A DNA stretch of 63,920 nucleotides, the filler included, from Atractiella rhizophila (taxonomy: Eukaryota), in NCBI GenBank assembly GCA_021432655.1. It is 5 parts of 5 records of this genome, joined end to end, with 100 filler letters (N's around TTAATTAATTAA, not from the genome) between each part and the next. Parts side by side here need not be neighbours in the genome. Positions count along the whole stretch, not along the records: positions 38,879 to 51,646 come from MU272000.1; 4 more parts are not named here. The stretch is one strand, 5' to 3'. The notes under the pieces were generated by a model. That model saw only the letters and a program-made list of their open reading frames with translations. It had not been told where the DNA came from and made no database searches. The position numbers and the translations under genes are program-made. This document shows, piece after piece, positions 2,940-55,005 of this stretch. Every line of letters begins with the position of its first letter. The first letter of the stretch is position 1.

Positions 2940-4650
2940 TCATTTTCCCTCTGGCTTAAAAGGAGGAGGCGTTGTTCGAATGTTCTCCAATTCAACGTTC
3001 ACACGAAGTCCCTTCTCAACCGCATCTTCTTGCTGGATTGATACTTCGGTCACCTGCTCGTCAATTTATCCGATGAGTATAGGCTCCTTGCCATTACAGG
3101 ACAAGAAATACCAGAATTTTGTCTCGAAAACGGGATGCCCTCCCAGCCGTATCTCGTGAACTTTGGTTGAAGTTATCGCGACGGTTGCTAGAATTGACAT
3201 TGGGGAGCGAAGATGGTAATGAGGGATAAAGGGCGGCTTCGTACAAAACCAAAGCTGCGACGACATAAACCTTGTCCGTTGGTTGAGGAAGGCTCCGTGA
3301 GAAAGAGTGAAATTAATACTTTGGCTATTATGTAACCCATTGCTGCCCATAAGCCTGTGTGCTGCGTTCCCCTTTGGTATCAGCAAGTCTGAATGGGACA
3401 TAGAAGAAACAAACAGGGGTGATAATGAGAAAAATGAGCTCGAGGATCTAGTCTTCTCTGTTACTCAATTATGATCCATGTATTCTGGAATACCCACTTG
3501 AGTGATTGTTGGAATAAGTCCAGTCTCCAACGTCAGCCTTCTGTGTGGTCAACTGGCATGAGTTGGATGTCTCGAAGGCTCAACAAGACGTACATAAACT
3601 GAGATGAAACGGATCTATCAGCTTCCTCCACGATGGAAAGGATGCTCACCTTAGCAGCGACAAAGTTAGTCTTGCTATAAACCGTCCTATCCCGGTGACG
3701 ATGGAGATGGTAGACCATGCAGAAACAAAGCAGGGCATCAGCTGTCGATGCACCTGCTTGCGATCATAAGTGCGCAACTTTTATTGATGAGAGGCGAGTT
3801 TACAGCCTAATGCAATGCCGCCTGGGACTAGAGTACCGGGAAATAAATCCACGATTGGGCGGGTGAGATGGATTCCGTAGAACACGAAACCGATTATCTA
3901 TCAACAAGATTGCAAGTGAGCGTGAGAACAAGAAAATAAGAAAGCGCACGCAGGCGAGACTCAGAGCCCCAGCTAGCCAGAGACATCTGTCAAGATCCGT
4001 TTAACATAGGAAGAGGAAAAATGGAAGGGGAGGTACCCAAAAGTGATCGGCTTCACATTCTTTTGTAATGAGCCCAACTTTGACAACCCTCTTCCAGTGT
4101 ACAGTTAGTTATGGTCTCCATCGTTGTAACCATGTAGACACACCGAGTGATGCGCACTATCCGCCATATGTAGATTGCTTGCACATAAGCCGTGAGGATG
4201 CCTTGGAAAACAGCGACGTAGACTAGATTTGCGTCATGCTTCACCCAAATGGATATTTACGAAGGACAGACTAGTTGCAGGCACTGGAGGTGAAAGAAAG
4301 AGGAGGGGTCCAACAAGAGCTATATCTTGCATATATGTGATAAAAGAGGCGAATTTCGTGATGCTGCACGTAAGGGGCGGTGTCAGAAGCTGAAGAAAGG
4401 TGAAGGGGAAGGCTCACGTGTCTCCAAGATTAATCCAGAAAAGCACTGTCAAAATCCACCAGGTTTTCGAATACACTGACTGCCTCTCGTGTAAGAGCTT
4501 GAAGACGCTAAAGAACTGTTGGAGTGTTATTCCGAAAAGTAGGAATCCAATGCTCGCGCCAATTATGATTGGATAGATATGAACCTGATAGTCGTGGCGC
4601 GTCCACTGGACGAATGACGCTTGAGTTTCAGGCTGAGAGGCGTTGCTCAT
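2940..4650 (-). CDS. Multi-exon integral membrane protein, DUF6534-like (basidiomycete multi-TM family)
   Basis: Exon translations PIIIGASIGFLLFGITLQQF, TAYVQAIYIWRIVRIT, VYHLHRHRDRTVYSKTNF and LTLETGLIPTITQ fit the family pattern. Last exon reads ..TTPPPFKPEGK* ending at 2940. Internal exon borders approximate. Confidence 0.7.
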
Positions 4651-6354
4651 GACTATCGAATCAAGGAAAGTAGCAAATGTAGGAGCGAAACGCGAACGTT
4701 GAGCGGGAGGAACTGCCTAAATGTCGGACGGGTAGGGTCACGGTAAGTTCCAGTTTCTCGGTACGTTGACGACGGCCATCCTTCGTTCTCAGTTAAGTAG
4801 GGCTCTGTTTGGCTCTGTGAAAGAAGCTTGCAACCGTCTTGATGTTACCCATGATGTTACCCTAACTTGGAGTGAAAAGCTGCGATTAGTTCAGATATCT
4901 GAACCTCGTTTCATGAAGAATGAAAAAACTAGTCGTAGGTTCATCATAGAGATGGAAGCAATTTCATATCAATGTCATCACACTAGAGCAGGTCAATCTC
5001 GTTTGCGAAGCTTCCATACTTGTCCTCAAACAGGATATTCAATTCTCAAGCTATCATAAAAAACAGGAACTTCAATCTCGCATCAAAAGGATCTGCCCAT
5101 CATATAATCATATGACTTCTAGTGTAACGTTCAAATCTCCGTTAAAGAATTTGTCGAGGAGTGGTACGGTACTCGAGAAGCATTACAGTGCCTGATACCG
5201 CTATCGTGATCAATCTCTGGTCCATCTTATGCTGCCTTTCCAGTGGCGTCCACCATCCGAGAAGCGTGCGTCATCTAGGTAATAGAACAACGAGCTAGCT
5301 CAGGCAACCCGTTATACAAGGGGACCCAGACGAAATAAAAAGGAAGATTGTCGGGAACAGCTTACCAGAAACGGCCAATTAGTTGGCTAATTAGCCCTTT
5401 GACATGCTTTGACGGGCCACTGGGAAGCCTCTACTCTTCTTCAGAATCGTCTTTAAATTGGTGAAAACGGGCTTGCAAGTCAAAAGAAGGCAGTGGGGAT
5501 GGTGGGGAAAGAAGTCCATCGCGGTCAGAAGAAAACGGAAAAGAAGGTGAACCCAGGCCACGAGAAGTTTCCACTTCCGACATCAACTACGACATAAGCA
5601 ACATGGTGGAAGACCCACGGAAGACAGGAAGACGTCTCATCGTGCATGACAGGGGAGACCCAAAACGTGATGCGCTCTAAACTTTTCCCACGGACGTTAA
5701 GCCTCGGGTCCTCTACAGGCTCTTCAAGTCCATCAAGCCTTGAAATGACAACATGCTAAGCCGGATTAAGCCATCGCAATCAGCGACAGAGGCATAGAGA
5801 AAGGACATGTAGGTTCCGTAATCAAATCTTGGCTTACGAACCAAATAACATTAGTGTTCGGGTATTTACTGCACAATGAATGAATGACGGTGTAAAACGC
5901 CAGTAGTACAAACAGATTGAAGAAAGGTTGCGACTGTCAGTGAACTAGGGGCGCTTTGCAGATGCATCGTGAGTGTCTCCTACTTTATACACAAACATCC
6001 ATAGCACAACGGGTCTCGTCTCTCACATTGTTTTTTCGTCCGCGAGTAAGGGTACCTAAAGGCTCAACTGGTGTAAGGGGGCTGTATTTTATTTTATTTA
6101 TTAAATGCTTATCGATCATCCTGAAAGTTCATTCGACTCCTGAGTGGTTCTTTCACCCTGATTGTCGATTATCCTTATGAATGAAGCATTAGGATATTTT
6201 TCAGCATTCTGATTTTTCATTTGAGGCACCGTGACTTTAACTCTATTATTATAATGTAATTTGCGCAGTGGGATCCTCCATGTTATAATCTAACTCATTG
6301 ACCACGACTACTTCGCAGACGTTCGAAATTAATTTGTCTCGAGTTTTACAGAAT

Positions 6355-7940
6355 ATGCCTAATCGTGTCGCCTACATTTCCTCCACCCACCTCACCTCCA
6401 TCGCGGATAAGCTCCCATCGAACCTGCACCGTTCCTCCTATGTGCATTCTCTGCATCGAAGCTTTTCTCTCCTCTCAGATTCTGAAGAAGAAGGAAAAGC
6501 GCAGGTCTATGCGCCTCTCGCGGCAACAGCAAAGGATTTAGGGCGGTATCATTCGAAGGATTACATCAAGTATCTCTTTCGGGACGAACAAGAGGAAGAC
6601 GACGGCAGAGCAAGGAAGAGACGGAGGATTGATTCTGACATTCAGAGGAGCGAGAATGACGAGGACGAATTGCATAGGCTGAAAGATGTGAGAGTGTCCT
6701 TCGAGCTGTCATCCATTTAACAATTGACATTTCAGAATTCATAGGATTGTCCCCGGTTCGACGGCCTCAAGGAGTACGTAACCCTTATCGCTGGAGGCTC
6801 CATGCTCGCCGCTCAGTTGTTACGGGATGATCGAGCTGAGGTTGCAATTTTCTGGGACGGTGGAAGGTAAGCATTGTTTTGTTCTGAGGTAGGAACACGA
6901 TGCGATTGCCTGATATATCGACACAGACATCACGCAGCCAGAGGCGAAGCGAGAGGCTTCTGTTACGTGCAAGACGTCGTGCTCGCCATCTCGGAACTGA
7001 AACGACCGACCAAGACTGCTGTTGGAAGGAACGGTGGAAAGAAGATCAGGAAGGTATTGTAGGTCATGACTGTATCTGCTGTCTCGTAACTCATCGGAAT
7101 ATTGTGTAGTTATCTCGACTTGGACATTCACCATGGCGATGGAGTGCACGCTGCTTTCCCATCCACATCCATTACCTCGTCCTCCACCGTCTATTTCCTA
7201 TCCATCCACCACGCCTCTCCTGGTCCATTTAGTTCATCTTTTCGTTGGTACTCATTTTGACACTCAAAGAACAGGCTTTTACCCCTCTCCCTCCCCATCC
7301 CTCTCACAATCATGCATTCCCATACCCTTCACAGTTACCTCTTCCACCTTGACACGCATCTTTCAGTCTTGTATCCTCCCCATGATTCAAGCATACAACC
7401 CTGATGCCTTAGTTATACAATGCGGAGTAGACGGACTCACAGGCGATCCAATGAACAACGGTCCGTCCTTCCTTTCTCCGTCACACTTGGCTTGGGATGT
7501 AGATCACTTAAAATCCATAACCAGGTTGCGGCGATCTCTCACTTTCGGCTCTCGGAGAATGCCTCCATCACTCCCTTTCCTGGGCCAGAGAAAACTCCAA
7601 GAAAGCGCTCCTCCTCGGAGGCGGAGGATACAACAACCCGAATGCAGCGCGTGCATGGACTTACTTCACTTCCCTCGCCTTGAAGGAGCCTCTGGACCTC
7701 GAGAGATCGATCCCGGACGAAGAAGAGTTTTACACTGATTATGCGCCGAGTTTTACGCTCGGGACTGAGAGGTCGAGTGAGAGGGGGTTGAGTGAGGAGG
7801 AGGAGGGGGTGCTGAGGGGGATTGAAGAGGCGTTTGATGGGTGGATCGGGGAGGTGAAGGATGTAATGGGAGTCAAGACCGCTAAATTGAAGGAGGGAAA
7901 GGATGGTTCTGAGACCGTTAGCGCTGGAACGTTGTCATAA
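6355..7940 (+). CDS. HOS1: Class I histone deacetylase, Hos1/HDAC8-like, multi-exon
   Basis: Motifs LPSNLHRS, YHSKDYI, DCP, WDGG/RHHAARGEARGFCY, DLDIHHGDGV, QCGVDGLTGDP and LLGGGGYNNPNAARAW are spread over exons. Catalytic and Zn-binding residues appear intact. Confidence 0.88.
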
Positions 7941-12925: not shown

Positions 12926-13025
12926 NNNNNNNNNNNNNNNNNNNNNNNNNNNNNNNNNNNNNNNNNNNNTTAATTAATTAANNNNNNNNNNNNNNNNNNN
13001 NNNNNNNNNNNNNNNNNNNNNNNNN
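12926..13025. other. Artificial 100-bp contig join (N-TTAATTAATTAA-N)
   Basis: N run with a central six-frame-stop spacer. Confidence 0.97.
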
Positions 13026-25852: not shown

Positions 25853-25952
25853 NNNNNNNNNNNNNNNNNNNNNNNNNNNNNNNNNNNNNNNNNNNNTTAA
25901 TTAATTAANNNNNNNNNNNNNNNNNNNNNNNNNNNNNNNNNNNNNNNNNNNN
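25853..25952. other. Artificial 100-bp contig join
   Basis: N run with TTAATTAATTAA. Confidence 0.97.
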
Positions 25953-34592: not shown

Positions 34593-34617
34593 NNNNNNNN
34601 NNNNNNNNNNNNNNNNN
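34593..34617. other. 25-N gap bordering a mis-oriented patch
   Basis: 25 Ns. Confidence 0.95.
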
Positions 34618-38778: not shown

Positions 38779-38878
38779 NNNNNNNNNNNNNNNNNNNNNN
38801 NNNNNNNNNNNNNNNNNNNNNNTTAATTAATTAANNNNNNNNNNNNNNNNNNNNNNNNNNNNNNNNNNNNNNNNNNNN
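38779..38878. other. Artificial 100-bp contig join
   Basis: N run with TTAATTAATTAA. Confidence 0.97.
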
Positions 38879-39072
38879 GTGGACTTTGTCGTACATTTTT
38901 GCGACTTCTGCGCATCTTTGTCTCCAGGAGGGAAAACGCAATTTCGGGAATGGGGAGTCTTGTTCAGATGGGGGGAATACCGTGCTGGGCGGCATTTTGT
39001 TGGAAGTGATTTTAGATGACATAAATGAATTGCAAGTCGGCGATGGGGACACTTCTTCCACCCACCGCCGTC

Positions 39073-40383
39073 CTAAAAATCCTCCTCAAGATCTTTCGAT
39101 TGGGTAACACTCGTTTTCGGCGACTGATCGGCGAATTGTCCAAATTGTCGTTCTTGGTGCATCATTTTCGAATCAAAATATTCTCCCTGGGCCCGAAGAT
39201 ATTGCTCCTTGTTCATAATCGTTCTACACTCCCTTTCCCGGTGTCCTATCTTTTGGCATCGCCTGCAACGGGGAGGTCTAGACTTTGTCGCGTCGACTTC
39301 CATGTCATCGGGGTCTTTGGCCCTATGAGCGTGTGGGGCGGCGTTGGGTGACGGGTCGGCGACCGGTGACAAGGCGGCGCTCGGTCGATACGATACGGAC
39401 GTTCTGTTCTCTCTGTGCTTTGAGGATTTTGAGTTGTCCCTTTTTGCAGAAAACGTATTTTGTGGTCCGTCTTTCGCCGATGGGATGTTTCGAAAGAAGG
39501 TTGAATGCGCAGATTCTTCCGCATCAATTCGCCGAGATTTTTCTTTCCAGTCTTCCAGCGATTTTGGGAACTCCCCTTGGGTTACTTTGAGATGTAGGGT
39601 AGGATTGAGTCCTCGTTTGAAGAAAAAGGTAAGGGCTTCATCATCAAAGTCAGCTTGATTTGCCAATTCTTCGAACTTGATGATGTAGGTTTCTAGGTTC
39701 CCCTTTTGCTGGAGGGAAGATATTTTTGTCTGTGCAATGAGCTTATGGTCTGTCTTACAGAAACACGCTTTGAACTCCGACAAAAATTGTTCCCACGCAA
39801 TTTGTTCCTCATTTTCGACAAGTCGGCGCAAAATCCCAGCGGCGAATTTTTCCGCATCTCCTTCTTTCATGTAAGAAAGGGTAAATAGGATTTTCGATTT
39901 TTCAGTCGGGAATTGACCTGGAACGGTAGAGGTGTAGACGTAAATTTCACGTAAAAATGTCGGAGCTGTGTTAGGAGCTCCTTTGAAGATTGAAGGTGGA
40001 GCGAGCTTGATACCTGCATACGGTGCTACTTGGGCAGTCTGGGATATAGACGGAGGAGAATAAGTTTGAGGTATTGGGTCTGTTCGCGATAAGAAAGGAG
40101 AGGTGGTTCCACTGTCTCTAGGAGGGGGCAGTCTGGAGTCCAATAATTGCAAAATTCGATCATTTGTGTTTTGGACGTCGGACCTCAGTTGCGCAATTTC
40201 GTTCGCATTCTGGGAGGTTTGCGCATTTTGTTGGTTGAAGCTTGATATGAGGTCTTGTTCGAGTTTTTTGAATTGCTTTTCAGTTGTGAGGTGTAGAGTT
40301 TGAAACATCCTTTCTAAGTGCTGGATGCGTTCTTCGCTCGTCGGCGGTTCGCGCGTTTCCATATCTCCCCAAATCTCCGACAT
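39073..40383 (-). CDS. gag: Retrotransposon Gag, 436 aa
   Basis: PSIFKG, FPTEKSKILFTLSYMKEGDA, LQQKGNLETYIIKFEELA, FKRGLN, DDMEVDA and CCHC knuckle CRRCQKIGHREREC. Confidence 0.92.
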   Translation of the reverse strand: MSEIWGDMETREPPTSEERIQHLERMFQTLHLTTEKQFKKLEQDLISSFNQQNAQTSQNANEIAQLRSDVQNTNDRILQLLDSRLPPPRDSGTTSPFLSRTDPIPQTYSPPSISQTAQVAPYAGIKLAPPSIFKGAPNTAPTFLREIYVYTSTVPGQFPTEKSKILFTLSYMKEGDAEKFAAGILRRLVENEEQIAWEQFLSEFKACFCKTDHKLIAQTKISSLQQKGNLETYIIKFEELANQADFDDEALTFFFKRGLNPTLHLKVTQGEFPKSLEDWKEKSRRIDAEESAHSTFFRNIPSAKDGPQNTFSAKRDNSKSSKHRENRTSVSYRPSAALSPVADPSPNAAPHAHRAKDPDDMEVDATKSRPPRCRRCQKIGHRERECRTIMNKEQYLRAQGEYFDSKMMHQERQFGQFADQSPKTSVTQSKDLEEDF

Positions 40384-40426
40384 TTTTTACGTTCGGTTTC
40401 AAAATTTTAAGGAGAGAGTATTCTTC

Positions 40427-40916
40427 TGTTAGGGCTAACACTATGTGCGGTCGCCGATAGGCGATGCGTCTGTAGTGGAGGTAAACCTAAGAGAATAGTA
40501 TGGCATAAGAAGACTAACCTGTAGTGGAGGTAAACCTAAGAGAATACTCTGAGGTCACCACCACTACATCTCGATGTATATATACATATGTAAAAGCACT
40601 GCCATAAACTGTACCATAAGTTTCTTGAAACATGTAAGATAGCTAGATCAGGAAAGCAATAAAAGGAAAGCTCGGAAATAAGACATACTGAGTAGTACAA
40701 GCGAGAAAGGACAATAAAGCAATAATTGAGACGGTGCAGACCGGCGAAATGTATAAGGTTTGCTGAGCGGCGATTCGTGTGAGACAGGGGAAGGCGGCGA
40801 TCAGCGAGAACGTGAGCAAAGCGGCGATGGGCAGGCGCGTGGTCCCATGGCATGGTAAAGTGGGTCACGTGACTTTAGATGGTGCATTTCGGTAATGCGT
40901 AGGGGCAAGCCTGACA
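40427..40916 (-). repeat. Putative 5' LTR of element A (490 bp)
   Basis: Minus strand begins TGTCAGG and ends CCTAACA (6/7 inverted match). Contains a TATA-like run near 40577-40585 and a 28-bp direct repeat (40470-40497, 40519-40546). Partner LTR not in window. Confidence 0.75.
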
Positions 40917-41068
40917 ACCCCAGTAAAGTACTGTTCAATTCTGGAAGACTGTCTAAATGCACCCTTTGAGAGCAAAGTTAGTATGTACTGTCAATTTAGT
41001 GAAATGACAAACCTTGTATGTATAACCCCAAGATCGCGACTGCTTTTGGAAGAGTCGGAATGAGCAAA

Positions 41069-42427
41069 TCAATAGGCAGTGATTACTGGAGGGGAAAACC
41101 AGCTGCCATCACATGAGAAGTCTTGAATGTGTATGTGGACGTATCTCAAAGTAGTTTGAGAAGGCAAAATGGTATGAGTGACATTAGGTGGATCTTCATG
41201 GTGATAGGATGAGATTTGAATTATTAAATGAAGTTTCTGGACCACATCAGAGAATAAGTCAAGAAAGGAGATCAGCCACGTCCTTACCTCCACCGTTGAA
41301 CTTCAGAACAGTGACAGAAGGGACCATTATTATTGGTAAAATGGTTTGAGGAAGCCTTGCCCAAGTAGTCTTAGGTGGTGTATTCAACACTTTAATCGAA
41401 GAAGTGGGTATACTAAGGATGATTGGGTATATAAACCCTTCCCAATCGGTCGTATCAGCTGTCAACATGATATTCGAAAATGTGATAGATGTGTTTATTG
41501 TTAACCAGTGCCCAAACCAGATGACATCACCATGACAAACTAGATGATCAAGAGTGAGGGGGACATTGATAGATATCAGAGGCAGGTTATGACTGGTGGA
41601 CCTGTATTCTGGAGATAAATATAGATGCTGCAGGGATCGAGAAACATTGGCAAGGAGAGATAGAAGTTCCTGAGAAGGTGAATGGGTGATTGTTAAGTGA
41701 AGTTTGAATATGGGCATCAGGCAGAGTTGGAGAAAGCTATGGAGCTGGAGGACTGATTGAGGATCATTACAATAGTCCTGGACAGCTTGTGTTCTGAATA
41801 CCAACCTCCTGCCTTCTAAATACCAGCCATAATACACCTTGCAGACCTTGAGAAAGCGTCTATAATGCATAGGATAACCATGAGGTAGACCCCATTCTCC
41901 ACAGTGATGAGAATGAGATGCCATGCACTCCTAAATCCAACATATAGGGCAATAAAGATCCCATAGATGGTGGATGACAAGATTCCAGAGTCGTAGGGCA
42001 GAGTTAGCCTCCCAACAAACGGATAATATAAACAAGAAGAACGTAAGACCGGTTCTTGAAAATTAGGTGCTTGGATCGATGCGGTACACCCATGGATACC
42101 TGTGCCTAAGGTGGCAGGCAGGTTCATGGCGAAGATATCCCGGAAACATTGTTCTTCATGTGAAATAACAGCAGAAGGAATTAGGTGCTTGAAGATAATG
42201 AAATAAGGCAGAACAGTGCTGTTGCACTGTTCGGAAGAGTGGCGCTCGCTAGATCTAGGTAATACCCAGCTAGGTTCGAAATGGGTCCAGATATCGTACC
42301 AGGTACCGAACTGATCACTTGGATATTCGTCATCAGACATCTGATCCAACACAGTCAGTTTGAGGTGGGACTTATGAGGTCTTGCGTTTTCAGATGATGA
42401 TGAACTAGTTGGTCTGATGAGTGGCAA
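41069..42427 (-). pseudogene. Frameshifted hypothetical F-box/LRR-like gene between the two Gypsy elements
   Basis: Three overlapping ORFs (41816-42427, 41259-41924, 41069-41293), with FLKVCK..RRLVF and SLQHLYLS. Strongly CpG-depleted. Confidence 0.4.
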
Positions 42428-42564
42428 TGATTGTGGAGAATAAAGGTCAGCTCACCGGTCGGATATCAGCTGGAGTAGCACTTTATGCTTGAAACTTTGT
42501 TACCTTACTGAAGAGTTCAGAAATTGCTTGGTGCAAGAGTCTAACGTATTGGTACAAGTTTCGG

Positions 42565-43370
42565 TGAAGTTGCTTATCCCGGACTAGAGAGAGAGTTCAA
42601 AGTTGGGAATAAACATTTGGTGGGCAAACACCAAAGCAGTTTAGTGAAAAAGAACTAGAGCAGCAACTAGTGCTTTTGCAATGGAAAATGCGCTTTTCAA
42701 CACTATAATTGACCCAAAGTACACTGAGCAAGCACCTGGGGACGAGAGAAACAATTATGAAGTCAAACGAAAGCGTAGAATGCTCACAGCACAAGTGAGG
42801 GATGTTATCTCCCCCTAAACTTTCCCCTTTTATGGCTTTCCTCCCCCTCCAGCACTCCACCAAGCTCCACTTCTTTTCCTTCCTCATCCTCTGATCTCCT
42901 ATATCCTTTCCTAAGTCCTATGTTGCCCTATTTCCTTTTATCTTGCCCACGTTTTCTATCTTGTCCAATCGCCATTGTCTTCTTATTTAAGGTTAAGATG
43001 GAGTTTTCTATTGACCCTTGTTCTATCTTGAATTGGCTGTTGCCTACATTTCCTTGTTCTGATTGAATTAAAACATGGTTGCGGAGTTATGTGTTGTGGG
43101 GAAGTAAGTAATTTGGTTGATGATGCAGTGAAATAGGTCATTTGTCTGGCACGTGCCCGTCTTTGGCGTATGCTCTTCATGTGACGATATGTACAGACAG
43201 GATGGGGTACATCATGTCCCTCCTGTTTGCCGAGTTGCCCCCGACGAGTTTAAACTGTAACCAGACCCTAACCCTATGTTGGGCAGGTCGTTCACCTCCC
43301 TGACCTAAAGTCAACATATAAACCACCATCCCTTCGTCAACTCCCCCAACTTCAACCACCATCTTCCTCA
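42565..43370 (-). repeat. 3' LTR of element B (806 bp)
   Basis: Minus strand TGAGG..CTTCA, directly preceded by polypurine tract GAAAAGGGGGGAGGG. First ~163 bp on plus match 51483-51646. Confidence 0.85.
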
Positions 43371-43761
43371 CCCTCCCCCCTTTTCGTCTGCAAGCTGTCA
43401 GGTCGTAAAGAGCGACTAGTGAGTAACGAATAGGGCGGCAAGTTCTTTTTAATTTCGAGTGAAATTTGTACGGGGTTTCATTACCGTGTCATTTTTTGCT
43501 TGCGCTTAATGGACTTACCGCTTTCTCCCTCACGCGCGGAGGACCGAAGACTCTTTCTTTTCATGTCGAAGGTGCTTCAAGATAGAACTTGAAAAGAAGG
43601 CCAAAGATATTTTGCGTAGGACTCGTTTGCAGACTGATGAACATTTTGTAGAGTTTCCTCATACGTTCTCCTTTTAAGTAGTGGCTGGGTTGGTGTTCAT
43701 TTTTCACATTGGGTCCAGCAAATTGAAGCGTTCTTCATGATTTGCAGAACTTCGATTTTAA

Positions 43762-44933
43762 GTATGGGCATCTGCCTGCTTCGTCCGCTTTTTGGGACTC
43801 TCCTTGCCTTCTTGTAGGCTCCCTTGACTTCTCTTCACTTCCCCAGTTCTTCCTGCGTGCGGTTGAAGGTTTCCTCTCCATCTGGTTAACTGTGGAGAAG
43901 GCCCAGGAGCTCGCCGCCTTGTAAACTTGATTTTTCCTCCAAGCTCGACCGATCTTCCTTTGCCAACCCATCGTTACTTCCTTTCCGTGGTCTATATTTC
44001 TGCCTCTTGGTCTGCTGGGCCTGCTATTTGTCTCCTTTGAGTTCGGAATGATTCATGGGAACCTAAGCAATTTCTGTTCAAAGAGCGTAAATGGATTGAG
44101 CGACAACTCCGCCAGCTGCAACATATTTTCTTCAAGGACTTCTGCTTTTTCTGGACTCATCGCACCATTGGCCAAGTCAACTATGGTTCCTCTGTCCTTT
44201 CTGCGTGGCGTGGGTGGCAAGAAAGTGGTGTTCGCCCTGAAATGTTGGAGCCTTCCGCAATTATTGCGGCTGTATCGTCATCTCGTATTTGGGTTCGATT
44301 CTCAGCGTAAGTATCCCATCCTTGATCTATGCCCCCTTCTTGCGTTGACATGTTATTTCTAGGTGGCGTCCTCTGTTATCTTCGTCATGCTCTTTAAGTT
44401 CCTGTGCTGGGCCATCTTCAGCTTTTCCAGCTCAATTCGGTGCTTTCGTTGGGATTCTCTCGTCTGTTATGTACAGTTTCGATGTATTTTATTTGAAGCA
44501 TTGGTTACGCGCAGCTGATTTCTTTGAGTTTTGTCTCGACTCGGAATTTCCGCCCTATAAAGAAGCTTGTGATATTCAGACCCAGGTCCTTCAAACCCCT
44601 TTCGATCCAGACCGCTGTCTTTCTTCCGTTGACAACTTCAAGTCTTCTCATCGTCCTCCTCTCCAAGTTTTCATTACCCAAACATACTCCAATCCTGCAG
44701 TTTTCCTTTTTTCATTTCGAGGTTCAGAGTATCAAAAGCCTTCAGGCATTCGTACTGAAGAAGAGCAAATTGAAAGGCGAAATAAACGGAAGGCTAATGA
44801 GTTGAATAGAGCTTTGAAAGGAGATTCGAAAAAGTAAGTCATTTGTGTCTATTGGAATGAAGTGATTCTAAAAATTTCAAAATTTTCTAGTAAACGTCAA
44901 AGAGAAAAGGCTAAGCAAAAGCGGAATGTTTAG
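43762..44933 (+). pseudogene. Spliced antisense accessory ORF inside element B (exons ~43762-44306, 44363-44833, 44891-44933)
   Basis: Two GTAAGT..CTAG introns (56 and 57 nt) join 259 uninterrupted codons from 44041. The frame extends 5' through three TGA stops. Confidence 0.7.
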
Positions 44934-47908
44934 CTTTGAAAATGAAACCAATATCTCCTCCCTCCTGTTTGAATTCTTTGTCTGTATTTTATACTGTTTT
45001 CGTATTTCTGGTATATATTTTCCTCGTTTTTCTAGGGTGTTATTATTTTTCCTTTGTTATTTTTGTATTTTTCCATGTCCTCCATTTATCCCCAAACATG
45101 GTCTTCATCCAGCTGTTTCTTCTTTGGGTTTCGCCGCAATGTATACATCCTCCCTCCAGTTTTCACGACTGGCCCCCCAGTCTAAGCCAACTGTTCCTTT
45201 GATGGTTGTGTAGCTTTCCTTTGTCCCGGATCGTCTTTATTTTGTGAGTTTAAGCCTTCCTCATCTGTCTCCTCCTCTTCGTCCCTCTCACGTTCCTCCT
45301 CAATGCTCCGTTTCCCCCAAGCCGTTAGAGTCTCTTCGACCAGATCACCCTCTCCATCGTCCACCACGGCTGTTATTGTGCCTTCTTCCACCAATTGTTT
45401 CCTCAAGTAGTACCGTCTAAGTCGTTTTGCTGCCACTAATCCATCGATTGCCATCCCATCCAACTCCTCCAACAAATAAGATCCCCTGTCCTTTCATTCC
45501 CTGATTTTGTAGGGTCCAAACCATCTTGTGCATAGCTTCTTGCTGTGAGCCATTTCTAACCTTGCATTCTGCTTCAAAACTAGCATTCCCAGCTCCACAG
45601 GGTCTCGAATTTTAGGTGCATTTCGTCGATCAAGGTATGTCATCCCTTCCTCCCTGGCTTTTCTTAATTTCCTGACCACCCTTTCTAGATCCTCATCTCG
45701 TACCTCGATTTGCCTCATCCTTGCCACAATTAAATCCTTCCTCGACATAGTCTCCTCGAATTTGGATATATAAAACGTCAAAAGCTCGAAGTCAACCAGT
45801 AGTAATGATTCACACCCAGGGAGTAGTTGGAATGGTGACAGGTTTGTAGTCCTTTGGGTTGATACTCGTTCCGCAAATAATGCCCTGTTGAGGTGTAGGT
45901 GCCATTCCCATGGTCTGTCGATACTGGCTTTCTCAATTGCTTTTATGATTTCCTGATGCCCTCTCTCGACTCGTCCATTTGCTTCTGAGTGGTAAGGTGT
46001 TGGATTGATGTATTTGCTCCCGCTCATTAAAATTGCTACCTTCGCCTCTCCCCGAAATTTAGGTCCTCCATCCACAACATAGCATCCAAACAATCCCCAT
46101 CGCCATTTCACTTCCTCCACAAAACTCGCAATATTCTTTGCTCGAATCCTTTTCAATGCCTTCCCTTCTGGCCAACCAGTCAAATCATCCTTCAATAACA
46201 ATAAGTAGGGGTATGGTCCCACTCCCATATGCACAACGTCCATTCCAACCTTTGAAAAAATACCAATACCCATGGGTACAGTTGCTTGGTGCGTTTCTTC
46301 CTCAGTCGTTCTTGCATTTTTCTGACATGCATCACAGCTCCGAACGTATTTCCCAACCCATCTCTTCATGCCAGGCCACCATCCTCTTGATTTCAGCCTT
46401 CTGTAAGTCTCTTGCTGTCCTCGATGGCCCAAGTCTTCATGTACTGATCTTGCAAATGCTCTACGTTCTTCTTCCCTATCGACTACCCTAACATGAATCC
46501 CATATTCCTTCCTTTGCTACAGTTCTCCCTCCTGTAAGAAGAAATCCCCGGCTCTCCGTTTAACCCTTTTGAATGCTTTATCTGAAATATCGTCCATTCG
46601 CTGAAGTGTCTGCAGAAATCGTTCTAACGCTGTGAATTGTGTATCTGGATAGTTGTGTGAGTTGAAATTGACCCCCTGCCGCTCCAGTTGGTTGACATTA
46701 AGTTGCAGATTCCCAATCACTATCTTTTCCTCTTCCTCTACCATATCTTCTGTCCTTGCTACTTGAGATAATGCGTCTGGTAAAAGGAATTGTGCCCCCG
46801 GATGATATCTAATATCGAATATCAAGAGATGAATAAAGGCATTCCATAGTGCCATTGGTGCATTTGGAAGGTTGGGTGAGTTTATCATCTGCAGTAGAGA
46901 TATAGCGTCAATGACAAGCGTGAAGTGAGTTCCTTAGAGGTCATGTCTCAATTTCACAAATATCTTTGCCACCCCAGCCAGTTCCAGCTTCGATTGTGAG
47001 TACCTCTTCTCGACTTCTGTGAAACTTATTGACTCGTATTTGACCGGTTGTGGCTTTCCACATTCATCCTCCTGTGCCAAAATTCCTCCTGCTGTAACTT
47101 GACTTGAATCCACCATTAAGATAATCTTTCCCACTCCTGGACCTCCATTTGGTGCCTTCAGAAGGATGTCTGCTCCAACTATCTGTTTCAGCCTTTCGAG
47201 GACCTCTTGTTACTTCTTCCCCCAAAACCATTCTTGTTTATTCTTCAATAATATCCTCAATGGCACCGTTTCGTCTGAGAATTTGGGAATGAATACTCGA
47301 ACAAATGTCACCGCTCCGTTAAAGGTATGCAATTCGTGAACATCTGTTGGTTGGGGCCTATCTAAAATTTTGTTCCGCTTCCTTGTGGTTATCCTCTTCT
47401 CTTCATATCCGCAATCCATTCCTACTATCTCGACAGATGGGCAGCAAATCGCCAGTTTCTCTCCTGATACTGTAAGTCCCGCCTCTTTCAATCAGAAAAG
47501 TATTCGTTCTAACGTAACTGCATACTCCCAGATAAATCGTCGAATTCCTAGATTGTTGGGCAAAGCCTCATTATTGTAACGACTTTAGGGCCTTTAACCG
47601 TGATATCGTCGATAAAGATAACAGTAAAAGTTGGTATTTCGTCTTTCATGATGAAAATGGTGCAACGCTGATATTCCGCGACGGAATTGGTAGCTCCTAC
47701 TGGTAATGGTCGCAGTCGAAACTGTCCCAGGGGCGTTTGAAAAGCCATCATGTCCCTCGTCATTTCATCGAGCTGCTGCTGATCATATCCTCCCAAAATA
47801 TCCAAAGCTCCAATGCACGCATATCCCACACACTCATCTGTATGTTCTGCAATGTTAGGAGGCAGGCCACCGTCCTTAATTGTCACCCCATTGAGTTTTT
47901 GTAGATTA

Positions 47909-48190
47909 CAAGTGTGTCAGAGGCCTTCGTCCCTCAGGCCCCCAACCCACTCGCAAGAGGCATGGCCCCTTGAACCCTACCCTGACTCAGAATGGGGTTC
48001 GAGTCCTCTCCAAAACACTTTTTTTCACCCTTTCAAAATAAAATTTCGTTGCAGCTTCAGGAAGGCGCAAGCATATACAGTAAGATAGTATAACTCATTT
48101 TGCTTCAATGTGCCTGGTGAGGGAGGTATGAACGCTCAAAAGTGCGTTTTATGACTCATGCCAAGAACGGATGGCTTTTCGAGGTAAGGA
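47909..48190 (-). mobile_element. 282-bp non-autonomous Helitron-like insertion in the RT of element B
   Basis: 5'-TC..CTTG-3' ends, inserted between host A and T with no TSD, GC-rich hairpin just before the 3' end. Removal restores IVHNLQKLNGVTIKD. Confidence 0.75.
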
Positions 48191-50864
48191 TGCACTATTC
48201 AGATCTTCCCATTCGTTTTCTCAACCACAAACCAGGATGATGAATAAGGTGACGCAGCAGGTTCGTAAAGTCCCGTTCGAATTCGTTCTCTGATTAACTT
48301 GATGACTGCTGGTTTAAGTGCGATTGGAATAGGAATAGGTTTCTCTTGCCATGGTTCATGTGGTACGGTTGGGATAATTTGTGGATTCGTATACATCCTC
48401 TTTAGAAGGCCTCTTTCGCTAACATCGAAGGCAATAGCTTGCTCCTTCAGTCACAATAACTTCTGCTCCTCCTTGCTTAGCCATCCTTCCAGTCCAAAAT
48501 TCACTATCTTCAGTCTGTCTTCTGTCAACCGCCCTCCAGGGATAAAGGTGGTGGTCTTGGAGTCAAAGGCTTCTTGTAAGGGTCCCTCGAATAAGGTGGC
48601 TGGCACATTGGTGCGTTAACTCCTTGAGGCATTGGTACTTTTACTGGTTTTATTTTCTTGTCCACCGTCTTGTATTTGGTGTTGAGTTATATATCTTCTC
48701 TATCCTTGAATGTTTCATTTTTAATCCTTAAATTTATTGCCAACTGTTTCTATTTGGGAATAGAGATTCCTGCTGCAACCATTAAATGCGCTCTGTCGTC
48801 TTCTCCTGTCACATCGATCCTCCAGCTTCCTTCACCAGGTTCCTTGTCCTTGATTTCGCAATTCCATATCTCCACCACTTCTCCACTCATTTCCTTCTTA
48901 TCATGTTTAGGCAATTCCTCATTCTTCTCCTCTCAAACTTGCCTTCTTCAAGAAGAGCCTCTTAGTTTTCCACCTCTTCCTCCTTTTCTTCAATGGATTC
49001 AGTCGTAATTTTTCCTAGCGCCACATCATCTAGGTTTCGATATTGCCACTTCAAGTTTTCTGCCGGAATTTTGTAATGGAGTCGATGGTAGCTCTGGCGG
49101 ACCGAAATAATAATAGAATCGTCTGGCGTATCGTAATTCAGAAATGCTTTTGAGTCGTGGAGGAATGCTTGTCCAAGGATAATACTGTGGGTTATAGATG
49201 GTGTAACGAAGAAATGCTGAGGAATGGTCATAGATCCTAGATTGATGTCGACATTTTCTACGATTCCAGCAATAGCACTCGTGAGGCCGTTGACTCCTGT
49301 GATAGAATAAGAACTTGTAAGCCATAAGCTTGCTTGTATTGCTTCCTGGGTTGCTTTTGACATTCCATTCATTTGAGCGCCACAATCAATCATTGTAGGA
49401 TATCGTCGCCCAGCCATGGCCTAGGTTTCGCAAAGCGCCGTTCCCTAGAAAGTCCAGTTACTTCTTCTTCTTCCAACGCTTGTTCTGCCGCTATCCTCGC
49501 GTGATGTTGCAGATACATACAATCTACCATCTTCCTTCCAACACCCTTTCGAAGTACCTCCAGTAATGATGGTGCATATTTTTCCACTATTACTTCTGCT
49601 ACTCGTAACTCCTCTTTCATTTGTAGGAGCCCTTTTTGATCCTCCTCGCTAGGCGTATTCTTCTCCTGCATCATGGTTGTTTTCATTTTTATTTCTTCGA
49701 CTGGCTCTGGTTCCTGCACAGCAACGTAGGTTTCCTCCTTTTGGTCTGAGATGATAACACCTGTTTCGAATCGAGTTCCTAAAGCTGGTGGACTCCAAGA
49801 TAAATGAACGTTACTGGCAGACAATGTCGACTGAGCATTGTTTGTTGCAGGCACTTCTACAATAGCTGCTGTTTTCTCTCTCGTCGTTTCTGGTTTGGCT
49901 GGTAAAGGGGTTGTATTCGTTCAAGTCGCGGGGGTCTCTTGCTGATTTTGATTCGTTTGGGGTCCGTTGTTTCGTCCAACCCCTCCTCCATATCCTCCAC
50001 CTCTTCCTCTCCAGTTATTGTTACCATATCCTCCTCTCCCACCATTATTCCATCCTCCACCATTCTAGTTATTATTCCATCCTCCTCCAGTCCCTCCTAG
50101 CCCCACATTCTCCTGAAGTTGACACTGAAGGCTTCCCACTGTTTGAGCCAAACTCGAAATTTGGTCTTGAAGCGCTTGAAAGGCATCATCTGGTTTTGGA
50201 ATGGTAGGTGAAGCTACCTTTGTTTGGATTTTAATCTCATTAACTTTCATCATAGATCCCTTCTCCTTGCTCTTGGTTTGTTTTTACCTATCCTCCTCTT
50301 CTTCGCTTTCAGATTCATCCTCACTGTCACTATCCCTCACTGTCACTATCCCAGCTTTCCAATCTCAGACTCACATTGCGGCTCTTTCCCCCATAATATC
50401 CTTTCCAGGGCTCGTGCCTCCCGTACTCTCTGTCCTCCTCTTCTTCCATTATTCTTTTGATATACTCCCAAACTTTGTCAACCATTGGTACGCTCCTTCT
50501 CCTTCTCTTGTCAGTTCCTTCCATTGTTTTCATTGTCTCTTCCTTTATCCTTTTCATTTCCTCCTCACGCTTCTTCCTTTCACTAATGACCTCCTGGATG
50601 CTTTCCGGTAACAAATCCCAGAAGAAGTATTAAGCCTCCGCTTCTGTGATCTGGTCATTTTCCAATAAGGAGTCAAAGATCTCCTGATATTTTAAGATAT
50701 AAGTTTTTACCTTCTCTTTAGTGTATCGTTTGGATTTGATAAACTGATTTGCCTATTTCTCCAAGCTCCTCCGGGTGTACTCGAATTCTCCAAGGTTAGG
50801 CGCCCATGTCTCAATCGCTCTCCTTTTCAGACCTTCCCAATTTCCATCTTTGAACTCTTGCCAT

Positions 50865-50976
50865 CCCCGCACTGGCTTTTTGATGTCCGATGTCCACACA
50901 TTCCAAAAACACTTTTACTTCCCCACACTGGCTTTTTGATGTCCGATGTCCACACATTCCAAAAACACTTTTACTT
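50865..50976. repeat. 56-bp tandem duplication frameshifting gag of element B
   Basis: 50865-50920 and 50921-50976 are identical except one G/A at a CpG. Confidence 0.9.
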
Positions 50977-51482
50977 TTAGGCTATCCAAAATTTTCTTCT
51001 GGTCCTCCTCTTCCCGTATTGCTATCCTGTCCTCCAACGTTTTCAAGCTCTCCGGGATTTTACTTTCATCAAATTGAATTCCTTTTGCCAGTTTAATGAT
51101 TGAACTCATGTTGGTTTTTGTCACCTGAGGTACATAATTTTCAGTGTGTTTGATTTGGTTGTTGACTGGTTTAAAGGAAATTTCCTCTTCTGTTCGTTCA
51201 ATATCATCTTCAGCCAATCCTCGAGCACTCGCTTACCTCTTCTACCAATCCCAAAACCTCTTCTAGGTTTAGGAAATGGTTTGCTGACGAGTTGTCCACA
51301 TGTGCTCGGAGGCCTTCAATTGCCATCGTGAGTCGTCTACCGTTCTTGTTCTTCTTGAGCTTCAACTGACCAGGCGAACCCAGTGCGGTCAAATCTCTCG
51401 TTCCTGTCAAGGTTGGGTGATCAAACAAATGATAATCAAAGATAAAAAGTAAAGTAACAAATTCCTCTCTCTGAATGCCAAA

Positions 51483-51646
51483 TGAAGTCGCTTATCCCGG
51501 ACTAGAGGGAGAGTTCGAAGTTGAGAATAAACGTTTGATGGGCAAACACCAAAGCAGTTTAGTGAAAAAGAACTAGAGCAGCAACTAGTGGTTTTGCAAT
51601 GGAAAAATGCGCTTTTCAACACTATAATTGACCCAAAGTACACTGA
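51483..51646 (-). repeat. 5' LTR of element B (U5 end only, truncated by gap)
   Basis: Matches 42565-42727 with 7 substitutions and 1 indel by manual alignment. Confidence 0.9.
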
Positions 51647-51746
51647 NNNNNNNNNNNNNNNNNNNNNNNNNNNNNNNNNNNNNNNNNNNNTTAATTAATT
51701 AANNNNNNNNNNNNNNNNNNNNNNNNNNNNNNNNNNNNNNNNNNNN
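51647..51746. other. Artificial 100-bp contig join
   Basis: N run with TTAATTAATTAA. Confidence 0.97.
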
Positions 51747-52390: not shown

Positions 52391-53629
52391 ATGGCTCAAA
52401 ATCTGCCCCCAGAGGTTGTTGCTCACATCCTTTCGGAGCATGAGCGACAAATCGATGTTTCCTGGTCCCTCATGTCTGACCTCTCGTTGATCATCTTGCC
52501 TGGTATCTGAGGATGATATAGTGCACGAAATTGGACTCACGAAGTTCGACGGGCTTTCTTTCGCAATGTGACTCTGCACACACAAAGCACAAGCACCGCG
52601 GATAAGCCTTCCGTCAAGGCGTTCAAGCGTGCCCTCAAATCACAGGCGTTCTTGTGGTTAAAGGGGATGGTACAATCCCTCATGCTAATGTGTTGGAACC
52701 CTTTCCCGAATGAGGAAAAGGGATCAATGTGGGAGCAGATGAGGACAAATATTTCCAAGCTTTGGACTGAAACGACAGACAGAGACTTGATCTCGCTCGA
52801 GGACTATCCGAGGAAACTGCCAGCACTCAGAAACGTTTTTATTTTCCGCCACTCAGCCGCACCATGCTTTACGACAGAGAACGTTCTCATGCCATTTTGT
52901 GGACTGTCGCTCGATTCTTTTTCGATCTTTGACGACACTTTCTTTTCTTTGTTCCCGGGATGTAACCCTCTGTTCAACAGCCTTACTCTGAAAAGCTTTA
53001 GCATTGAAATGCGACGACCGTTTAAGTTCCAGAGTTGGAACGAGAAGGAAAGGCTTCAGCTTTCTCCTCTTCAAACTCTTAGTTTCAATTACGATGACAG
53101 CACCTATCATCGACACTTCTCCCATGATTTCGAGAGCCTTTTGACCTGCACATCTTCTATCCAAGAGTTGTGCGTCGGTTATTTTTCGATCACGACACTT
53201 CCCACACTCGGCAATCTGCCTGTCATTCTAGGCCTCAAGAATCTTTCCCTTTGGAGCTTCATCTGTCCAGAAGCGGTTCTCAACGAGCTCATCTCCTCTT
53301 TCAAAGTTTTGGAATATCTCGCTTTAAGCAGAGTGCAGTGGACCGCAAGCCTGTTTTCTCACTTGCCACATTCTTTACGCTCTCTCAGCTTATCGATTCC
53401 AAATACTTCATATGTGACACCAACAGAGATTCAAGATGCAATCCTTGAGAGGGCGGCAGGCACATGGGCACATGTACCTCTCCTCGCACACTTCACGTGT
53501 GAGGCGAACCTGGAAATTATGCCGCCAGAGCCATTATGGGACAACGGGAGCTGTGCAAGTTTGGAAATGAAGTTGAAAGATAGCAGAAAGGAGTGTAGTT
53601 TCAAGTTTCGCTGCAAAATCTGGCGCTAG
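52391..53629 (+). CDS. F-box-like/LRR protein; 5' structure unresolved, possibly pseudogene
   Basis: MAQNLPPEVVAHIL at 52391 is in frame with RNWTHEVRRAFFRNVTL and the 353-aa LRR-like ORF (LPALRNVFI, LKNLSLWS, LPHSLRSLSL). Two TGA codons near 52508-52516 need an intron or are lesions. Confidence 0.6.
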
Positions 53630-54553: not shown

Positions 54554-55005
54554 NNNNNNNNNNNNNNNNNNNNNNNNNNNNNNNNNNNNNNNNNNNNNNN
54601 NNNNNNNNNNNNNNNNNNNNNNNNNNNNNNNNNNNNNNNNNNNNNNNNNNNNNNNNNNNNNNNNNNNNNNNNNNNNNNNNNNNNNNNNNNNNNNNNNNNN
54701 NNNNNNNNNNNNNNNNNNNNNNNNNNNNNNNNNNNNNNNNNNNNNNNNNNNNNNNNNNNNNNNNNNNNNNNNNNNNNNNNNNNNNNNNNNNNNNNNNNNN
54801 NNNNNNNNNNNNNNNNNNNNNNNNNNNNNNNNNNNNNNNNNNNNNNNNNNNNNNNNNNNNNNNNNNNNNNNNNNNNNNNNNNNNNNNNNNNNNNNNNNNN
54901 NNNNNNNNNNNNNNNNNNNNNNNNNNNNNNNNNNNNNNNNNNNNNNNNNNNNNNNNNNNNNNNNNNNNNNNNNNNNNNNNNNNNNNNNNNNNNNNNNNNN
55001 NNNNN
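54554..55005. other. Sized scaffold gap (452 N)
   Basis: N run. Confidence 0.98.

Follow-up and report, generated by a model that had tools for sequence, protein, structure and literature searches.

The antisense gene and its host element

In the window analysed here, a 63,920-nucleotide (nt) stretch of the genome of the fungus Atractiella rhizophila (GCA_021432655.1), a degraded Ty3/gypsy retrotransposon on the minus strand contains the remains of an intron-bearing gene on the opposite strand. The window is composed of five pieces of about 12.8 kb joined by four 100-nt linkers (44 N, TTAATTAATTAA and 44 N). Because it joins separate pieces, features across a linker are not genomic neighbours. 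Both the element and the antisense gene are located in the piece 38879-51646. The gene (43509-44933, plus strand) is antisense to gag-pol and lies wholly within, and fills, the spacer between the pol stop codon and the polypurine tract adjoining the 3' long terminal repeat (LTR), which starts at 43354. Gene and pol are convergent, with 249 nt between the antisense TAG and the pol stop, and the distance from the LTR to the ATG of the gene is 155 nt. The coordinates of the individual features are collected in Table 1. An initial annotation had placed a gene between the integrase and the polypurine tract (PPT), and the pol stop and the purine run found on either side of it agree with this setting.

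The host element belongs to the Ty3/gypsy group (Metaviridae), with protease (PR), reverse transcriptase (RT), RNase H and integrase (IN) in the order PR-RT-RNase H-IN, a pair of LTRs and a PPT ahead of the 3' LTR. The 1272-amino-acid polyprotein P0002 aligned with the window by tblastn at 43-56% identity in frames -1, -2 and -3, from 48680 down to 45335. A TGG-starting sequence that resembles a primer-binding site follows the end of the 5' LTR. The segments 42565-42727 and 51483-51646, from the two LTRs, are 95% identical over 164 nt and are the sole long direct repeat of the window. The element is an old and dead insertion, with a broken pol, LTR ends that are 5% apart and an antisense gene that is a pseudogene.

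The initial annotation described a stop-free plus-strand frame across two introns, and we re-derived it. The exons 44041-44306, 44363-44833 and 44891-44933 give 259 codons and a TAG stop after removal of introns 1 and 2. Each of these introns begins with GTAAGT, and the 1796-nt region has no other such motif on its plus strand. The frame was compared with first-order Markov simulations of this region (n = 300), in which a frame could span as many as two consensus introns, each of 45-75 nt. None of the 300 simulations attained 259 codons (median 110, 95th percentile 174, maximum 233), and the longest frame on the minus strand of the region was 105 codons under the intron-allowing search. Elsewhere in the window, frames of at least 259 codons were found in 15 of 106 other tiles.

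We searched 1,835,955,588 protein representatives with the exon 44364-44831 by phmmer and obtained exactly one match (P0001, E 1.7e-76). It is KAH8917830.1, the hypothetical protein BT69DRAFT_1338764 of A. rhizophila, with 538 amino acids. It was aligned to the window by tblastn and frameshift-aware alignment, and 348 of 401 aligned codons (86.8%) are identical from the ATG at 43509 to 44834. Residues 1-18 of KAH8917830.1 correspond to 43509-43562, after which the frames are shifted. Residues 51-119 correspond to 43715-43921 (88% identity), residues 120-248 run up to 44307, and the C-terminal 140 residues (399-538) correspond to 44415-44834 (85% identity). Residues 267-398, about 132 codons, have no counterpart in the window copy, near 44397-44415.

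The homologue also bears on the introns and on the length of the gene. The product of the intron 1 splice is identical to RFSA/WRPLL (KAH8917830.1 residues 245-253). A third intron, intron 0, was called because the junction FP/PNW of KAH8917830.1 fits only when 43661-43718 is removed. KAH8917830.1 ends in GDLKK, which is a read-through into the TAA within the second GTAAGT; in the window copy the frame likewise stops at TAA 44835-44837 if intron 2 is left unspliced. Intron 2 stays a prediction because the gene model of the homologue reads through its donor. Of the two introns initially annotated, intron 1 is therefore matched by a junction of the homologue and intron 2 is unused in its gene model. 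The extension of the frame to about 353 codons was too short, since the gene reaches the ATG at 43509 through intron 0. This extension had required three TGA codons to be read as CGA. One of them, TGA 44038-44040, is indeed an arginine codon in KAH8917830.1, but those at 43825 and 43864 are in the wrong frame because the loss of 1 nt near 43913 moves the true one. A further stop, TGA 43724-43726, corresponds to tryptophan. With two stops, three 1-nt deletions, a mutated donor and about 132 codons gone, the window copy is a pseudogene.

The open frame of KAH8917830.1 itself is difficult to ascribe to chance. The strand of the gene has 18-25 stops per 598 codons, and because of this stop density an open reading of 538 codons is far beyond chance (estimated at about 1e-8). 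In the ancestry of KAH8917830.1, something therefore kept this frame open.

Sister copies and the origin of the gene

Further copies were examined in two DNA runs of one sample, which contain about half of the words of the region. The search for runs with this stretch gave no RNA run, a result without bearing on whether the gene is expressed. Contigs were placed on 41000-51400 at a likeness of at least 80%, which gave 845 and 662 matching contigs in the two runs, with all identity classes present. Transitions outnumbered transversions among the contig differences by about 2.7 to 1 (X1). The summed depth in X1 was 355-752 in the gene bins, 474-659 in the gag bins and 3,699-7,244 in the LTR bins, and the contig identical to the window had a depth of about 129. 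Variant contigs resembling KAH8917830.1 were about three times as deep as unique ones (406 vs ~129, X1). The family is thus present in several copies, and the depths give a weak hint that gene and gag occur in a similar handful of copies, although summed contig depth does not measure copy number and should not be over-read.

Sister contigs carry the undamaged state at two lesions of the window copy, with G at 43661, which returns the donor to GTACGT, and G at 43726, which gives TGG (tryptophan). Among the differences listed for 43603-43780, six are non-synonymous (including the change from stop to tryptophan), three synonymous and three intronic, and all six non-synonymous ones are toward the residue of KAH8917830.1. 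Another 1,123 sister-contig differences lie beyond those listed. A joint 42253->44871, present in one contig per run, could not be interpreted and is left aside here.

Three contigs with 21-50 differences cross the pol stop (45055-45405), and therefore at least two diverged copies run from the integrase into the same spacer. This continuity argues against a nested insertion, in which another mobile element carrying this gene would have inserted into the 3' portion of the gypsy one. The surroundings are repeat-rich, with a second gag open reading frame (ORF) at 39073-40386 and a high-copy insert in the RT region at ~47908-48189. However, no direct or inverted repeats, terminal repeats or target duplication were found around 43386-45181, and no Pfam family, transposases included, matched the gene. 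We regard a nested insertion as very improbable. A second copy of the antisense gene was not found within the window.

The gene may instead have been captured from the host. In this case KAH8917830.1 would be an ordinary single-copy gene, transduced in antisense orientation by one sublineage of elements, and the window would hold a decaying passenger. Only one intact protein is annotated, it was retained in a genome annotation that lacks the pol of the element as a long protein, and the family is low-copy, with about 3-7 copies by a rough reading of depth. On the other hand, the entire coding sequence from ATG to stop, introns included, sits in the spacer, whereas transduced sequences are usually sense-oriented fragments according to a review (PMC7264820). 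The depth of the gene bins is about that of the gag bins, and the KAH8917830.1-like contigs have about three times the unique depth. The lack of any homologue in other organisms among the 1.84 billion representatives would also be unusual for a host gene. A captured host gene appears quite unlikely to us on this evidence.

Additional searches gave no relatives of the protein. A word-based search with the exon 44364-44831 against proteins of 85-273 residues had no match, and one with KAH8917830.1 against proteins of near length returned only itself (8,000 candidates scored). Searches with KAH8917830.1 gave 20 pattern matches and 0 relatives in metagenome contigs, and 1 stretch and 0 loci in viral contigs. 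Three degenerate-pattern scans aimed at this viral stretch gave a sole match, L001, which was rejected as chance (28% identity over 93 residues, E 0.001, a single contig).

The antisense protein also has no recognisable domain. In Pfam, only CMC4 was reported at E 0.064, short of its cut-off, and the PDB gave 0 matches at E up to 10. Two hydrophobic segments peak at a hydropathy of 1.5 over 19 residues and are unconvincing as membrane spans. The helix at residues 513-536 of KAH8917830.1 is basic, the last 39 residues contain 12 lysines and arginines, and the optional last exon of the window copy would extend this helix. A basic C-terminal helix of this kind, as modelled, hints at possible nuclear targeting.

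Interpretation and relation to known antisense ORFs

We consider it probable that 43509-44933 (plus strand) is a decayed, lineage-specific and intron-bearing accessory gene, carried in antisense in the spacer between pol and the 3' LTR by a low-copy Ty3/gypsy family. The initial annotation had proposed an uncharacterised accessory gene of a fungal LTR element. The locus is indeed gene-like, has an intact paralogue and is antisense within the spacer, but the window copy is dead. The further suggestions of the initial annotation, expression driven by the 3' LTR and an anti-silencing or regulatory role, gained no support.

Several results weigh against this interpretation. The family has a single member in the annotated proteins, KAH8917830.1, which has its 90% cluster to itself and is known here as a protein alone. 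A 'longer' word-based integrase search gave six matches, the best at 44% identity and none from Atractiella. The sister substitutions among those listed, over about 300 nt, appear near neutral, without sign of purifying selection. Structure prediction, which had been proposed as a check, gave no fold: the Atlas model had a predicted local distance difference test (pLDDT) score of 0.27, with no usable feature match and structural template-modelling scores of at most 0.40, and AlphaFold2 without an alignment gave a mean pLDDT of 33 and exceeded 66 in helix 513-536 alone. Together with the Pfam and PDB searches, this assigns KAH8917830.1 to no fold or family. Finally, serine, leucine, arginine, phenylalanine and proline make up 48% of the residues, as a T/C-rich strand yields.

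Some of these results would be expected if no protein is made. The frame would then be a by-product of the pyrimidine-rich strand, or of a non-coding spliced antisense transcript, and the 538-amino-acid entry would be a functionless ab initio model. The empty searches for fold, family, function and further homologues, the composition typical of a T/C-rich strand, the near-neutral substitutions among those listed and the decay of the window copy at the pace of pol are consistent with such a case. However, 538 open codons over two canonical introns of 56-58 nt exceed what the stop density permits, and neither the simulations, which end at 233 codons, nor the minus strand, at 105, approach this length. 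We therefore consider the absence of a protein product unlikely.

If the locus is the remnant of an accessory gene, its introns would be kept by their orientation. By established retroelement biology, introns antisense to the genomic RNA would not be spliced from it, and because of this they would persist through each round of reverse transcription. Transcription would start at an antisense promoter, either at the U3 end of the 3' LTR or within the 155-nt stretch that separates this LTR from the ATG, and would converge on pol. The product would be a protein with little structure besides a basic C-terminal helix, possibly acting in the nucleus on the expression or integration of the element itself. 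The nuclear step is speculative and is modelled on a proposal for plant aORF-3R proteins, described below. Equally speculative, the antisense RNA itself may feed silencing mediated by double-stranded RNA (dsRNA). In a bolder version, the gene would have arisen de novo on the pyrimidine-rich strand, gained three introns, become a maintained accessory gene and come under the control of the 3' LTR as in HBZ, with a basic, largely disordered nuclear product that tunes silencing or integration. We give this version only a slender chance.

The intron orientation can be compared with a known experimental system. Antisense-intron retrotransposition indicator cassettes share the principle that an intron lying antisense to the element RNA stays unspliced in the genomic transcript. 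In the cassettes themselves the marker is antisense and the intron is sense, so that the intron is lost on transposition, whereas the Atractiella gene and its introns are both antisense and the introns are kept.

HBZ of HTLV-1, a retrovirus of people, is a bZIP protein and a basic nuclear regulator translated from a spliced transcript. Its antisense promoter is at the 3' LTR (PMC7264820). The Atractiella protein has neither a bZIP nor another Pfam family and no homology to HBZ was found, so the comparison is an analogy only.

Antisense genes in this location have been described before. The review 'Additional ORFs in Plant LTR-Retrotransposons' (Vicient & Casacuberta 2020; PMC7264820) defines antisense additional ORFs (aORFs) between pol and the 3' LTR. 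Grande (gene23), RIRE2, Retand and PvRetro13 are examples of the class, and Boty of Botrytis cinerea and Sclerotinia sclerotiorum is given as a non-plant example, citing Zhao et al. 2011 (PMC7264820). According to this review, a function has been determined for none of the aORFs, they are without database similarity, and presence in most copies of a family separates them from transduced genes (PMC7264820). GENE23 localises to the nucleus and is under a promoter of its own, and both a nuclear regulatory role and a role in dsRNA-mediated silencing have been proposed for the class (PMC7264820). The initial annotation had pointed to antisense extra ORFs in some plant LTR lineages, with which the review agrees and to which it adds the fungal Boty case (PMC7264820).

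As in aORF-3R, the Atractiella gene is found between pol and the 3' LTR, on the strand opposite to gag-pol. Members of the class are expected to have no similar gene outside elements, and here there is one homologue, KAH8917830.1, known as protein alone. The antisense gene is probably a new, sequence-unrelated member of this known class. It resembles the plant aORF-3R in its antisense place between pol and the 3' LTR and in its orphan sequence, and it differs from them in host and in sequence. The word 'intron' occurs 0 times in the text of the review (PMC7264820), whereas the Atractiella gene has two matched introns and a candidate.

A further close parallel is brtn, the additional antisense gene of Boty-like elements (PMC8365987, PMC4227169). 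It is likewise an antisense additional gene of a fungal LTR element (Virology 417:248; PMC8365987, PMC7264820, PMC4227169). Its host is an ascomycete, whereas the host of the Atractiella element is probably a basidiomycete of the Pucciniomycotina. A search with the C-terminal 156 residues gave only KAH8917830.1, which counts against close homology with brtn only if brtn was in the library. A limited look at the literature, which leaves absence unproven, turned up no paper on a basidiomycete LTR element with an antisense gene that carries introns.

Given that antisense ORFs between pol and the 3' LTR form a reviewed class with a fungal case (PMC7264820), the designation of the locus as the best candidate for new biology was overstated. 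We see moderate interest in the finding, because the gene survives in the window only as a dead pseudogene and because antisense ORFs of this class have been described before. A de novo, maintained accessory gene, if true, would give the unexplained aORF-3R class a tractable model in a fungus. An intact annotated copy with strand-marking introns in a culturable fungus would permit direct functional tests. It would also exemplify how an orphan 'hypothetical protein' of a fungus may be the product of a gene carried by an element.

Further features of the window and of related elements

Table 1. Features of the antisense gene, the host element and the window
Feature	Position	Strand	Remarks
Exon 1	43509-43660	+	ATG at 43509; 1-nt deletions near 43563 and 43583
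Intron 0	43661-43718	+	58 nt, phase 1; donor ATACGT (mutated), acceptor CCAG
Exon 2	43719-44306	+	TGA 43724-43726; 1-nt deletion near 43913; TGA 44038-44040
Intron 1	44307-44362	+	56 nt, GTAAGT..TTCTAG, phase 2
Exon 3	44363-44833	+	
Putative intron 2	44834-44890	+	57 nt, GTAAGT..TTCTAG, phase 2
Putative last exon	44891-44933	+	13 codons and part of a split codon, basic; TAG 44931-44933
3' LTR	42565-43354	-	790 nt; termini TGAAGT...ACTTCA, terminal inverted hexamers read from the sequence
PPT adjoining the 3' LTR	43355-43384	-	plus strand pyrimidines save a few bases
pol stop codon	45182-45184	-	
Integrase with acidic C-terminal tail	45182-46516	-	Integrase_H2C2 45494-46516, E 2.7e-18
pol (RT, RNase H, integrase)	45335-48680	-	several frames; tblastn of P0002
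RT	47548-47916	-	RVT_1
Aspartic protease	48962-49420	-	gag-asp_proteas, E 4.6e-07
5' LTR	51483-51646	-	last 164 nt only, cut by linker
Linkers	12926-13025, 25853-25952, 38779-38878, 51647-51746		~12.9 kb apart
Further N runs	34593-34617, 54554-55005		

Several smaller features were observed in and around the element. An insert of about 280 nt (~47908-48189) splits the RT coding region, and P0002 residues 349-352 flank the gap from 48178 to 47907. The summed depth over this insert is 47,632, against about 900 beside it, and contigs skip 282 or 321 nt at this position. The insert has the appearance of a small nested repeat of high copy number. In its gag region, the element contains a 57-nt tandem duplication (50864-50976) that is 98% identical. 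A 20-nt motif occurs three times with 80-100% identity (43209-43228, 44951-44970 and 45143-45162); it is purine-rich on the strand of the element and PPT-like. One copy of it lies within the LTR and two lie between the stop of the antisense gene and the pol stop.

Beyond the 3' LTR, a 437-codon ORF on the minus strand (39073-40386) with Retrotrans_gag, Ty3_capsid and a zinc knuckle marks a second retroelement, and the flank 41000-42387 is likewise multi-copy in the DNA runs. The next piece of the window contains a 370-codon ORF (52517-53629, plus strand) with a weak match to an F-box-associated leucine-rich-repeat family (PF24758, E 2.7e-06).

Related integrases were found at 21 metagenome loci, with 28-44% identity, and these loci had neither detectable LTR pairs nor relatives of KAH8917830.1. 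Two of them carry antisense ORFs that converge on a Ty3 pol (36% integrase identity), L011:6654-7205 (minus strand) and L017:1341-2108 (minus strand), which end 324 and 265 nt past the pol stop, respectively. Their products share a C-terminal domain (35% identity over 81 residues, E 1.2e-8) with no Pfam match. They were rejected as kin of KAH8917830.1, with a probability of 0.07 in a profile comparison. These ORFs may be a further case of an antisense extra ORF in gypsy elements of fungi, on contigs where no LTRs were found. Further downstream of the L011 pol, three paralogous cysteine-rich antisense ORFs (L011:7156-8838, minus strand) are 35-41% identical, and one of them matches DUF3716 (E 1.1e-11).

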